A stretch of 4,476 bases of DNA, from IMG/VR virus record IMGVR_UViG_2703718848_000014. The stretch is one strand, 5' to 3'. The DNA is from a virus (taxonomy: Duplodnaviria > Heunggongvirae > Uroviricota > Caudoviricetes). The translations under genes and the position numbers were made by a program. The stretch's first letter is position 1. The number at the start of each line of letters is the position of its first letter. The notes below the pieces were generated by a model, which made no database searches, had not been told where the DNA came from, and saw nothing but the letters and a program-made list of their open reading frames with translations. Positions 33 to 4,123 of this stretch are shown here, piece by piece.

Positions 33-1196
33 TTACACATCATTAGTACCTTCCTTATTTTTTGACTGGGACAAATTTGGGACCGATGGGTTCAGGATCG
101 AGTCTATTTGCCGTGCGTGTTCGGTAAGGTGATTAGGTGCAAGGTGAGCATATCGACGAACCATTTCGATAGACTCCCAGCCTCCCATTTCCTGTAACAC
201 TGACAACGGGACTCCGGCTTGAACCAGCCAACTTGCCCAGGTGTGTCTCAAGTCGTGAAATCTGAAATCATCAATACCAGCCCGTCTCAGCGCCGCTTTC
301 CAGGCTGTGTTTGCGTCATACCGCATCTTCCTTACTGTTGGCGCTTTCGTTCCGTCTGGTTTGGTACAGCTTTCCTTGTACACAAATACCCAACGGTGAT
401 GATTCCCGATTTGTTTTTTCAAAACGCGACATGCAGTATCATTCAGCGCAACGCCGATTGCGCGGTTTGATTTACTCTCTTCCGGGTTTATCCATGCCAC
501 CCGGCGCTGCATATCTATTTGTTGCCATTCAAGGTTGATGATGTTCGAGCGTCTTAAGCCTGTTGCCAGTGCAAATTCAACAACAGACTTTAATGGCTCC
601 GGACATTCATCAATCAGCCTTTGTGCTTCATGGGGCTCCAGCCAGCGGATCCGTTTATTCTTTGGTTGAGGCACTTTAATAATTGGTGCCTTATCCAGCA
701 TTTTCCATTCACGCTCTGCGGCTCTTAGTAGGGCCTTTATAAATGAAAGATGCGTAGCCTTCGTTGCAACGGACGCTGGTTTTGGCGTGTATTCTGGAAC
801 AGGTTTCCCTTTTTTTCTGCATGCTTCTGCCCTGAGTTTCCAGTTTTCCTCATGACGCCGGTTCGTCATTTTCTGCATTGCTGAATAAATTTTTGATTCA
901 GTAATGTCTCTTAGTTGCATTCCTGCGAAATGTTGAAGCCAGAATCCGATCCGGCTTTTGTCATCGTCCAGTGATTTTTTATGTGCTTTCTCTTCAAGCC
1001 ACCTGACACATGCTTCCTCGAACGTTATATCAGGTATTTCACCAAGTTTACTGACCCGCCATGCTTCAGCCTTTAGCTTGTCATGGAGTTCTGTCGCCTG
1101 CCTTTTGTCCTTTGTTCCAAGAGACTGTTTAAATCTTTTACCGTTCGGCAATGTGAAACTGGCGTACCATATTTCACCTCTGCGGAAGAGTGACAT
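33..1196 (-). CDS. int: phage tyrosine integrase (site-specific recombinase), P22/DLP12-like, 387 aa
   Basis: ORF begins [41 protein letters not shown], which I recognise as the P22-family Int N-terminus. C-terminal catalytic signature is present: HDLRHT (H-x-x-R box) and RRYAHL (catalytic Tyr). SD-like GAGGAAAG lies 5 nt upstream of the ATG at 1196. Position next to a tRNA 3' end fits an attL-side integrase. Confidence 0.95.
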
Positions 1197-1698: not shown

Positions 1699-2577
1699 TC
1701 ATACCCCTACCTCTTCGAATTCCAATTTCAATTGATCACCCCAGATTTCACATGACTCTGAACACGAACCGGTATCGAATCGCCTGGCCTGTACCATCGC
1801 CTGATACAAATTTCTGTAGTCGCTGTTGGCAGACATTCTGGCAATTCCGTCAAGCGTCAGGTGACCACGGTACATAATGTCTTTACCTGTTCTGCGATGA
1901 CCATCCCTGACGTGTTTGCCTGTAACCAGCTCATTAAAAACTCGCATCAGACCTGGTTCGTCTTTACATGCAAGCCCCAGCTTTTGCGTTGACTTTTTGA
2001 TGCAGAAAACACAGTTCCCGAGATGCTCCGGGATTTGCAAATCAAAAGGTTGTTTTCGCCACCACCGGATAACATCCGACTTATCAAAATCTGACAGCTC
2101 GGCAAGATACCGGACGCCCGATTTCGGTTTCAGCCTACGGGGTTCGTCTGCACGAATACCCAGCCATGTGATGTAATTACCTCGCCCGAAATGGTTATCG
2201 CAGTATTTCGTGAAAGGGATGAGTTTTAGCCTGTCAGTACAGAACGCGCCGCCGATGTATGGCGTGCCGTACTTTTTAACCATGTCCATAAACGGTTTAA
2301 GCACCGGCATTCGTGTCTGAATATCCTTTGGCTCCCATTCTGTATAACCATTTGGCTGCCCAAGCTCAGGATTTATATCGACCTGTAACACAGTTAGTGG
2401 TATGTCCCAGAACTTTACAACCTCCCGGATAAAGCGGTATGTCAGCGGATGTTCGCAACCGGTATCCATAAAGATATAGCAGACGTTATTGCCAGCCTTT
2501 CTTTGTTCTTCCATCAGGTGAACAAGATATGCGGATGTTCTCCCGCCAGAAAAACTAACTACATGAGTTATGCACAT
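1699..2577 (-). CDS. PAPS-reductase-like / PP-loop ATP pyrophosphatase family protein (phage-type, Cys-rich C-terminus), about 292 aa
   Basis: N-terminus MCITHVVSFSGGRTSAYL carries the PP-loop motif (SGGxxS) just after the first beta-strand, as in the PAPS reductase/DndC/QueC superfamily. The C-terminal part has paired cysteines (NCVFC, CSESC) compatible with a metal or Fe-S site. Start chosen at ATG 2575-2577, which overlaps the HD gene stop by 10 nt. The longer ORF-track start at 2694 lies deep inside the HD gene without an SD. Confidence 0.8.
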   Translation of the reverse strand: MCITHVVSFSGGRTSAYLVHLMEEQRKAGNNVCYIFMDTGCEHPLTYRFIREVVKFWDIPLTVLQVDINPELGQPNGYTEWEPKDIQTRMPVLKPFMDMVKKYGTPYIGGAFCTDRLKLIPFTKYCDNHFGRGNYITWLGIRADEPRRLKPKSGVRYLAELSDFDKSDVIRWWRKQPFDLQIPEHLGNCVFCIKKSTQKLGLACKDEPGLMRVFNELVTGKHVRDGHRRTGKDIMYRGHLTLDGIARMSANSDYRNLYQAMVQARRFDTGSCSESCEIWGDQLKLEFEEVGV

Positions 2578-3104
2578 TTGCGTAATTCCGATAACTCGTT
2601 GAAGCGTTCCATAAACATCCCGTAGGCATGGCCCGGTGCCAGTGGAATAACTTTGAACATCTCTGTTGCCGGGATACCTTCCAGTACAGGCCATAAAGAG
2701 CCATCATCAAGCCCGAGATCACGGCGTTCGGTTGCCAGCATAATGAGATCGGCATATTTCACGGGCGTGCTCATAACCGGGGGTAACCCGTATTTCTCAC
2801 GGATTACGGCGTCTATTTTTTCTTCCATCCGTTTATAGCCAGGAAGAAGGCGTTTCAGTTGCGCGGGGATGTCCTGACAATACGCTTCTGTTGCATCATG
2901 CATTAACGCTTCAAAGGCGAACTCTGGCGCCACAAGTTGACTGCACAGAACGGAATGCTGCGCCACGCTGTAAAAATCCGGCAAGTGTCCCGCGAAGCGG
3001 CAGATATTTGAAAGCGCACCGGCGATATCCTCGATATAAATATCGTCAATGGTGGAGTTGATATAATTGAACTTCTTACCGGTAAGAGTCTGGATAAAAC
3101 TCAT
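2568..3104 (-). CDS. HD-domain phosphohydrolase, YfbR-like (5'-deoxynucleotidase family), 178 aa
   Basis: Motifs SVAQHS (first His) and LMHDATEAYCQDIP (HD dyad) match the spacing and pattern recalled for E. coli YfbR (…SEHS…YHDASEVLTGDLP…). Strong SD AAGGAG lies 8 nt upstream of the ATG at 3102-3104. It is the first gene of the tightly coupled leftward block. Confidence 0.8.
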   Translation of the reverse strand: MSFIQTLTGKKFNYINSTIDDIYIEDIAGALSNICRFAGHLPDFYSVAQHSVLCSQLVAPEFAFEALMHDATEAYCQDIPAQLKRLLPGYKRMEEKIDAVIREKYGLPPVMSTPVKYADLIMLATERRDLGLDDGSLWPVLEGIPATEMFKVIPLAPGHAYGMFMERFNELSELRKCA

Positions 3105-3261
3105 CGTTAGTTCTCCTTAATTGGTGCGCTGCACCGCACGATTTTTGGTTGCACGAATCCCTCGCCATAAGGCGATTAAAAGTTTTGGTTTCGTTTCAGT
3201 AAATGCCCCATCCAGAGGCACTTAGTGCAACGGGCGGCTGCCATCGCCAGTTATTTTCCCC

Positions 3262-3346
3262 ACTCAATTGAAAGCGCGTTCCGGAGGTTTTGGACTTAAC
3301 GAACTGGCACTTAATGACAAGGGACAGAACGCGCTTTCAGTTGAGT
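3262..3346. repeat. inverted repeat: 20-bp arms (3262-3281 and 3327-3346) separated by 45 bp
   Basis: Left arm ACTCAATTGAAAGCGCGTTC; right arm GAACGCGCTTTCAGTTGAGT. 19 of 20 positions are Watson-Crick complementary. The single exception is a T/G pair that would be a G-U wobble in a plus-strand RNA but an A-C mismatch in a minus-strand RNA. Confidence 0.6.
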
Positions 3347-3492
3347 AAAAAGGTGGCTATTCATCAGAACATTGTCGCCTTCATTAGGTTTATCTGTTGA
3401 AGATCTGTAAGCCGCTTATAAATAAGTAGATATAAGATATTAGGAAAAGAAGAAGGACGTTATAGTTTTATTTGTGATGTGCAAAGTATATT

Positions 3493-3516
3493 TGAATAAA
3501 ACCCGCCCAGCGGGTT
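3493..3516 (-). terminator. rho-independent terminator for the AT-rich gene
   Basis: On the minus strand, 10 nt after the TAA stop of the 198-aa ORF: stem AACCCGC, loop TGG, stem GCGGGTT, immediately followed by TTATTCA (T-rich tail). Confidence 0.6.
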
Positions 3517-3526
3517 CTAAAGTGTT

Positions 3527-4123
3527 TTAATGATTGTCGTGATAATTAATTGGCTCATCATTTTTTTTGTCTGGCATAGTTATGGACCACTTTATATTCT
3601 TTAGGCTGTTATGTTTTTTATTGACCTTAAGCTCTCTCTTTGCTTCAGAGATAATATCGTCTAGTAATACTTTTAATTTATCAAGTCTTGACTTGTGGGC
3701 ATCTATCAACTCTATACTATCAAACTCCCATTGTATAAATAGATTTTCTTCATTTTCAATGAATGAACGGATTTTATCCCCACACTCTTCTGTTAAGAAT
3801 AATGAAGATAGCTCACCTATTCTACTGAGTTTTTCAAGCTCATTAGAGAAAGATTTGCTAAGGATTTCATTTTCTTCTTTTGATTTGTAACTAAAGTAGG
3901 TTGGGAATTGTGAGGTGTGATGTAACTCCTGTTTATACCAATAGTCAGCTGTGTTTTTTAGAAGATAAACACAGTCAACTAATTGCGTATACAAATCTAT
4001 TCTTTTGTCCCACCATTTTTCTTTATAATAACGGCCGAGTGCATATCGCGCAGTTAAGTAAGCTGCGATTGAGCCTGTAACAAGTCCGATAATTACCTTT
4101 GATATAAGGTCATGCCAATCCAT
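3527..4123 (-). CDS. hypothetical membrane-anchored protein, 198 aa, in AT-rich cassette (moron-like); function unknown, candidate exclusion/defence protein
   Basis: Long ORF in a region of markedly lower GC than the flanking phage genes (judged by eye at roughly one-third GC versus about half). N-terminus MDWHDLISKVIIGLVTGSIAAYLTARYAL followed by GRYYKEKWWDKR is a single predicted TM helix with a positive flank. The remainder is K/E/Y/W-rich and I recognise no family. Weak SD AGGGAAAA is 5 nt upstream of the ATG; its own terminator follows. Confidence 0.75.
   Translation of the reverse strand: MDWHDLISKVIIGLVTGSIAAYLTARYALGRYYKEKWWDKRIDLYTQLVDCVYLLKNTADYWYKQELHHTSQFPTYFSYKSKEENEILSKSFSNELEKLSRIGELSSLFLTEECGDKIRSFIENEENLFIQWEFDSIELIDAHKSRLDKLKVLLDDIISEAKRELKVNKKHNSLKNIKWSITMPDKKNDEPINYHDNH

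Follow-up and report, generated by a model that had tools for sequence, protein, structure and literature searches.

A stretch of phage DNA in which every long open reading frame lies on the minus strand carries, just upstream of one of its genes, a near-perfect inverted repeat with a 45-nt loop; what might such a repeat do there? The window, by which we mean the whole 4,476-nt stretch of DNA analysed, had previously received a first-pass annotation that described the repeat, correctly placed all annotated genes on the strand opposite to the plus strand, and named four candidate roles: an antisense or structured RNA read from the plus strand, an RNase III-type processing site, a protein-binding palindrome, and the relic of a small mobile element. 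Of these, the evidence presented below favours the processing site, read from the minus strand.

A repeat search of the window recovered arms at 3262-3281 and 3327-3346, 20 nt each, 95% complementary and 45 nt apart, exactly as first described, and reading of the sequence identifies T3268.G3340 as the sole non-Watson-Crick pair between them. None of 200 dinucleotide-preserving shuffles of the window contained a 20-bp inverted repeat with at most one mismatch and a loop of up to 100 nt, and the analytic chance expectation for such a repeat is 2.4e-5; the repeat is a real helix, far above chance. Folding of both strands, which had been proposed as a check, yields a hairpin on each, at -38.9 kcal/mol (z -4.2) on the plus strand and -35.6 kcal/mol (z -4.6) on the minus strand. 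The first-pass annotation had stressed that the lone mismatch is a G-U wobble in a plus-strand transcript. This is true of the arms themselves, but on the minus strand the helix gains two further pairs inside the nominal loop, a U.G at 3282/3326 and then a G-C at 3283/3325, and so extends to 22 bp, with the first of these becoming a C.A mismatch on the plus strand. Since the 3282/3326 wobble fits the minus strand and T3268.G3340 the plus strand, the single sequence gives one wobble per strand. Beyond the repeat lie AAAAAGG on the plus strand and GGGGAAAAUAAC on the minus strand, and both the sequence and a promoter/terminator scan lack a U-tract after it on either strand. With this and its 45-nt loop, the repeat does not have the form of an intrinsic terminator, in agreement with the earlier description. 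An Rfam scan of the whole window returned no family match up to E = 1. The features discussed below are collected in Table 1.

Table 1. Features of the window around the inverted repeat, in order of position; hairpin features are described as they would appear in minus-strand RNA.
Feature	Position	Strand	Remarks
Tyrosine integrase	33-1196	-	
Small excisionase-like region		-	Between the integrase and the PAPS-reductase-like gene in the window's gene list
PAPS-reductase-like protein	1699-2580	-	
HD-family hydrolase, first early-left gene	2568-3104	-	ATG at 3104
Conserved leader, repeat to HD-hydrolase start codon	3105-3255	-	Three or four small hairpins
Whole conserved module, repeat plus 6-7 nt per side	3256-3353	-	~98 bp; bounded by homology edges
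3' arm of hairpin	3262-3281	-	GAACGCGCUUUCAAUUGAGU
45-nt loop	3282-3326	-	Outermost two positions pair on the minus strand; conserved like the arms among close relatives
Loop motif	3294-3304	-	GUUCGUUAAGU; family consensus GUCGUUAAAU; from alignment A1 and the model alignment to Qin
5' arm of hairpin, as transcribed	3327-3346	-	RNA ACUCAACUGAAAGCGCGUUC; from repeat search, fold and alignment A1 (columns 3-22)
AAAAAGG (minus strand CCUUUUU)	3347-3353	-	Tail of the DicF-like terminator hairpin of relatives; the hairpin itself is missing from the window
Terminator-like hairpin ending the 198-aa moron gene	3490-3520	-	GAACCCGCUGGGCGGGUUUUAUUC; upstream of the repeat along the transcript
198-aa protein, inserted accessory gene ('moron')	3527-4123	-	Family match absent

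Several readings of the loop itself were tried and set aside. A small open reading frame starting at the loop ATG is contradicted by the absence of this ATG in locus L004 and by length changes in the downstream hairpin that are not multiples of three. Putative sigma-54 and sigma-70 promoters in the loop have poor hexamers by eye, are not conserved in L004 and were unreported by the scan. Integron attC-like core sites (RYYYAAC/GTTRRRY) nearly fit the window type, but the other types do not fit and no integron integrase lies nearby, so we regard the likeness as coincidence. A tRNA-like reading of the loop gave nothing convincing.

The surroundings of the repeat indicate which strand is likely to be transcribed. 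DNA of the window is also found in 16 complete Escherichia coli genomes, and in strain ECONIH4 (locus L001) it makes up the left arm of a lambdoid prophage that encodes ymfT/ymfL-type regulators, a P27-type terminase and a repressor (WP_000848748.1) identical to YmfK (CohE) of the K-12 prophage e14. The window represents the left arm of a lambdoid prophage of the e14/ST64B/P27 kind. The best promoter match in the ECONIH4 region, TTGACA-16-CATAAT (11/12), lies on the minus strand directly after the terminator of the repressor gene, which in window coordinates is ~70-100 nt past the right end, and is taken here to be PL, the predicted early leftward promoter. Because this position is beyond the right end and the match is on the minus strand, early leftward transcription would enter the window from the right and reach the repeat. 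Along the PL transcript the order is moron, hairpin 3490-3520, repeat, 150-nt leader and HD hydrolase gene; the hairpin at 3490-3520 was read from the sequence and forms in the minus-strand fold, and is absent from the consensus-scan list.

This region has several further features of its own. The leader hairpins at 3122-3136, 3161-3175 and 3233-3248 are each followed by a T-rich run on the plus strand and resemble terminators for transcription running against the genes. The N-terminus of the 198-aa moron protein is hydrophobic, and neither Pfam nor PADLOC gave a match for the protein; its gene occupies the place of ymfJ plus the DicF-like region in e14, a position equivalent to that of lambda rexAB. 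The PAPS-reductase-like protein matches the PADLOC family SspD (1.3e-14), with weaker matches to DndC and BrxP, and its gene has a 13-nt frame overlap with that of the HD-family hydrolase; the two may represent a DNA-modification or anti-defence pair in the early-left operon. An ISSpu7-family IS element splits the PAPS-reductase-like gene in ECONIH4 (L001 9420-11030), and the window is without this insertion, which indicates that it derives from a different carrier of this prophage.

A search at blastn sensitivity found the repeat in 22 of 5,426 complete E. coli genomes, with one copy in each. A pattern scan added 52 viral contigs and genomes of Citrobacter portucalensis and Silvania confinis; five further hits in the genome collection, from distant phyla, were unrelated palindromes and were discarded. 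In the phage GenBank collection neither megablast nor blastn sensitivity detected a relative of the repeat, and the sole match was a 37-nt piece of the leader (3140-3176) in an intergenic gap of Citrobacter phage phiNP. Comparison with relatives reveals sharp edges around the repeat. The right-hand limit of homology always falls at ~3349-3355, mostly at 3353. The left-hand limit varies: 14 loci stop at 3256 (or 3251), most of the rest stop at 3140 or 3101, and seven window-type loci and L056 extend further. Judging from these edges, the repeat with its flanks is an independent unit within a mosaic region. The module is common to phages with different repressors and lies in the repressor-controlled early operon of the lambdoid prophage, with the immunity/moron region on one side and the first early gene on the other.

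What adjoins the module differs between the window and its relatives. In relatives other than the window type, a second, covarying hairpin, GGCGGTACCAG...CTGGTACCGCC, together with the motif AAGACTMCACACAGC, stands directly to the right of the repeat, that is, just upstream along PL transcription. This hairpin is terminator-like, as it ends in CCCUUUUU on the minus strand, and its mismatches, read by eye without a formal count, are mostly A.C on the plus strand, i.e., G.U on the minus strand. The copy in K-12 e14 matches DicF (RF00039) at 28.5 bits (gathering threshold 48, E 2.8e-4 in a local search) and STnc100 (RF02076) at 29.2 bits (gathering threshold 47), full-length in both cases, whereas that of the type A relative L003 reaches just 14.6 bits against DicF. 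Because these Rfam scores are sub-threshold, we call the hairpin 'DicF-like' and no more. The window has neither a DicF-like small RNA nor a tRNA beside the repeat, and just the 7-nt tail CCUUUUU is left. The repeat stands alone in this phage because the moron replaced the DicF-like RNA and left its tail.

Using the motif AAGACTMCACACAGC as an anchor, at least 157 loci were collected, and among the matches listed the slot beside the DicF-like hairpin holds different occupants: type A, the window's kind, in 75 of 157 loci; type C, which shares the type A stem but not its loop; type B, which has a 20-bp stem of its own and a three-way junction (assigned to 39 loci by a motif rule); a tRNA gene in one locus; and Qin-like sequence in others. 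Of the 5,426 complete E. coli genomes, 2,810 carry the type B sister element, which in K-12 e14 falls within the annotated open reading frame ymfH, just upstream of xisE. Covariance-model matches, from which second copies were counted since a loose inverted-repeat search around the anchor proved too permissive, place family hairpins on both sides of the DicF-like RNA in many loci. This arrangement fits a role in cutting small RNAs from a polycistronic early transcript.

Other observations concern the sister elements themselves. The 20-bp stem of type B carries fixed C.C and G.G mismatches (L175 3470-3781; also L131, L082 and L064, the last being phiNP). In K-12, ymfH spans both the type B element and the DicF-like hairpin and may be a spurious open reading frame over structured RNA. 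The type B loci L131, L082 and phiNP contain GGGTTATGAGCCC on the strand corresponding to the window's plus strand, and the PL-sense strand of many type B copies reads GGGCUCAUAACCC, where K-12 e14 has GGGUUAAUAACCC. We take GGGCUCAUAACCC to be identical to the anticodon stem-loop of the E. coli initiator tRNA (three G-C pairs and a CAU loop), a likeness that could be coincidence or a tRNA mimic. A tRNA-Arg lies on the PL-sense strand in or beside the slot in L002 (6193-6266, minus strand) and in L106, where it abuts the DicF-like hairpin; the order along the L002 transcript is type C hairpin, tRNA-Arg, DicF-like hairpin and type A hairpin. In L004 (6100-6890) and phiNP (~5060-5840), an unannotated stretch of ~750-800 bp, partly conserved between the two phages, separates the DicF-like hairpin from the repressor gene and may hold further non-coding RNA modules.

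Conservation of the stem was examined in an alignment (A1) of 38 distinct type A and type C sequences in minus-strand orientation, with a 21-pair helix. Standard pairs fill 90.1% of the helix cells, a share that falls to 26-46% if the 3' partner is shifted by 1-3 columns. The arms are conserved in related phages, and the covariation across homologues that had been suggested as a further check is present: both sides have changed at 6 of the 21 pairs (for example, A-U/U-A at columns 4/89 and G-C/A-U at columns 18/75), and the covariation score is 0.137 versus 0.072 in shuffles. On the basis of the share of standard pairs, the two-sided changes and the covariation score, the pairing of the stem is under selection. 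An invariant GCGC/GCGC core occupies the middle of the helix, and type A copies show almost no variation in the loop motif GUCGUUAAAU.

The pairs alone give a mixed signal as to strand. Within the 20-pair main helix, standard pairs make up 91.2% on the minus strand versus 94.9% on the plus strand, where the share is slightly higher because A.C mismatches recur at three stem positions on the minus strand. Across the 38 members, three stem positions (8/85, 11/82 and 12/81) carry pairs that work on the plus strand only and four (4/89, 7/86, 19/74 and 22/71) carry pairs that work on the minus strand only; as the sequences are related, these strand-specific wobbles represent a handful of events on each side. 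The earlier assignment of the RNA to the plus strand from the lone G.U pair does not survive this comparison. Evidence for the minus strand comes instead from the way the loop motif is oriented, from the direction of PL and from the strand on which the DicF-like and tRNA neighbours lie. A covariance model (R1) built from the same 38 sequences in minus-strand orientation scores the window's copy in ECONIH4 at 90.0 bits on the minus strand versus 48.1 bits on the plus strand, a match that holds by construction as this copy is a seed member. Independent support is given by two loci outside the seed, L004 at 77.4 bits and Qin at 23.7 bits.

The Qin match connects the repeat to a known RNA processing event. 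At the true dicF locus of Qin, between ydfC and dicB (L176), R1 matches positions 1590-1677, ~125 nt upstream of dicF, with an E-value of 3.5e-5 for the locus, and does so on the dicBF sense strand, where it obtains the 23.7 bits, versus 11.6 bits on the other strand. The Qin hairpin has in common with the family the stem core GAAAGCGC...GCGCUU and the loop motif, which reads UCGUUAAAU in Qin and fixes the orientation of the family, and it has an A.C mismatch at a stem position where 11 family members also carry A.C. Because the match is on the sense strand, the window's minus strand corresponds to the dicBF sense strand. The match to the model is modest and the hairpin's own fold is unexceptional (z -1.6); a consensus scan did not find the dicB promoter in Qin.

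According to Faubladier et al. 1990, confirmed by Ragunathan et al. (bioRxiv 10.1101/2023.04.14.536235), RNase III makes the 5' end of a 190-nt DicF precursor and RNase E makes the 53-nt form of DicF. Counting 190 nt back from the DicF 3' end (L176 1853-1858) leads to 1664-1669, within the 3' arm of the hairpin (1660-1676) and beside the GCGC core. From this product length we infer that RNase III cuts Qin RNA inside the 3' arm. Directly after the DicF terminator, Qin also has a 28-bp long-range stem (z -4.4), and the 3' end of the 72-nt form of DicF, which RNase III is reported to make (PMC5069750), lies in its 5' arm. In Qin, reported RNase III sites thus coincide with the hairpin related to the repeat in sequence and also with the stem equivalent to it in position. 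The valley of RNase III accommodates ~22 bp, and G-C pairs at the centre of sites are preferred in vivo (PMC6212723); the ~22-bp helix of the repeat agrees with the former, and its central G-C pairs would agree with the latter if they lie between the two predicted cuts. At 20 bp with one mismatch, or 22 bp on the minus strand, the repeat has the roughly two helical turns of an RNase III substrate.

Taken together, these results suggest, with a probability of roughly 0.55, that the repeat forms a hairpin in the early-left transcript at which RNase III processes the RNA, and that it is read from the minus strand of an e14-like lambdoid prophage. On induction, RNA polymerase would start at PL and run leftward through the moron and then the repeat, where the nascent minus-strand RNA would form the 20-22-bp helix. 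RNase III would then make a staggered double cut near the GCGC core, with predicted positions of ~3272-3278 in the 3' arm and ~3330-3336 in the 5' arm, transferred from the 190-nt precursor of Qin. Such a cut would part the upstream RNA from the early-left mRNA (HD hydrolase, PAPS-reductase-like protein, xis and int) and give the latter a new 5' end ~170 nt upstream of its first start codon. The upstream RNA released would be a DicF-like small RNA or a tRNA in relatives and the moron message here, and cleavage may change expression. Some features do not sit comfortably with RNase III cleavage: the terminator-like hairpin at 3490-3520 precedes the repeat on the way from PL and may reduce the transcription that reaches it, a simple cut site would not account for the conserved loop motif, the window lacks a DicF-like RNA that could be released, standard pairs are slightly more frequent on the plus strand, and the Qin match is modest.

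The hairpin could also act in the minus-strand early-left RNA without RNase III, as a protective or insulating structure, as a signal for pausing or antitermination, or as a precursor from which a loop-borne small RNA is made. Position, orientation and covariation speak for such a structure as much as for a processing site, and the near-invariance of the loop motif, which cleavage alone does not require, together with the elaborate loops of sister elements in the same slot, is a further point in its favour. However, the Qin structures that match the repeat by homology and by position are both reported RNase III sites, there is no resemblance to HK022 putL in sequence or shape, and no Rfam family matches; we consider an RNase III-independent role possible but unlikely.

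More doubtful is a function of the repeat as DNA, whether as a protein-binding palindrome, a cruciform or a conserved 'linker' for recombination between lambdoid modules. The exact breaks in homology at both edges of the module would be expected of a linker, locus L020 resembles a recombinant within the loop, and wobbles with no strand bias are what a constraint on double-stranded DNA would give. The compensatory changes, however, preserve pairing and not sequence, and the helix is kept in sister elements with quite different sequences. The arms, 65 bp apart centre to centre, are atypical of a binding site. The module is moreover kept among phages with different repressors and is unrelated to the operator-like palindromes of e14 (TACAT-N-ATGTA), and hence is not an immunity operator. 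The protein-binding palindrome of the first-pass annotation is therefore improbable as an immunity-specific operator, while some other role at the DNA level keeps a small share of our confidence.

A more speculative possibility, which we judge improbable, retains RNase III and gives it a different product: types A, B and C would be interchangeable cassettes whose loops RNase III excises as ~60-nt RNAs with functions of their own. Features that can be cited for this are the near-invariant GUCGUUAAAU of type A, the 13-nt copy of the initiator-tRNA anticodon stem-loop in many type B elements and the tRNA genes found in the same slot in some phages. If true, the repeat in the window would be more than a cut site and would encode a small RNA with a regulatory or decoy role.

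An antisense or structured RNA read from the plus strand is very unlikely. The T3268.G3340 pair forms on that strand only, the family's share of standard pairs is higher there and the fold is slightly more stable. Against this, PL transcribes the minus strand, the scan found neither a promoter-like site left of the repeat nor a terminator following it, the wobbles at four stem positions fit the minus strand only, the loop motif that defines the orientation matches the dicBF sense strand, the Qin hairpin fits the family model in minus-strand orientation only, and the DicF-like and tRNA neighbours in relatives are on the minus strand. Finally, a MITE-like relic of a small mobile element, which an inverted repeat with sharp homology boundaries might bring to mind, can be rejected, as searches for the arms elsewhere in the host genome found one place per genome in 22 of 22 E. 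coli genomes, always in the same prophage slot and with neither dispersed copies nor a target-site duplication seen, and the arms covary as a helix.

The mechanism most likely served by the repeat, RNase III processing, is thus a classical one, in which a relative of the repeat coincides with a cut reported in 1990, and current understanding is not overturned. What is gained is a concrete and testable function for a conspicuous repeat, tied to the maturation of DicF, among the oldest mapped RNase III events in E. coli. The Qin site would belong to a family of hairpins, widespread and uncurated, that is found beside small-RNA and tRNA genes in early operons of prophages of the e14/ST64B/P27/Qin type. 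We found no published description of this family, and the element is absent from Rfam; the family is suitable for modelling and for addition to RNA databases. The results also suggest that host RNase III shapes the expression of excision and recombination genes in such prophages.

Among known systems, HK022 put is similar to the repeat in being a protein-independent structured RNA located just downstream of a lambdoid early promoter. It consists, however, of two short stem-loops, in contrast to a 20-bp helix with a 45-nt loop, and lies before the nearest terminator, whereas the repeat lies after it; by eye, the HK022 PL region has no similarity to the repeat. Regarding small RNAs, the hairpin that abuts the repeat in relatives resembles the terminator stem of DicF (UUGGCGGUAYCAGUUUU...CCGCCCUUUUU), but the seed regions of DicF and STnc100 differ from it and neither RNA is in the window. 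The repeat is a neighbour of DicF/STnc100-like RNAs and not a member of their families.

The lambda N-leader hairpin, sib and the R sites of the T7 early region are long helices in polycistronic early RNA. Host RNase III cuts them and so separates or regulates messages, with shown effects on expression. In its place in the leader of the first early-left gene the repeat resembles the lambda N leader, although the lambda and T7 sites have no sequence similarity to it and have characteristic internal loops. The closest counterpart is the hairpin upstream of dicF in Qin. RNase III cleavage is shown for Qin alone, where product length places it in the hairpin, and the window's copy is a predicted site. 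The Qin hairpin is bulged and mismatched (~17 bp), in contrast to the near-perfect 20-22-bp helix of the window, and lies ~125 nt upstream of DicF, whereas type A copies in relatives lie directly downstream of the DicF-like hairpin and the window's copy is without a small RNA. Both hairpins nevertheless occur in a repressor-controlled early operon of a lambdoid prophage, and in the same orientation to transcription.
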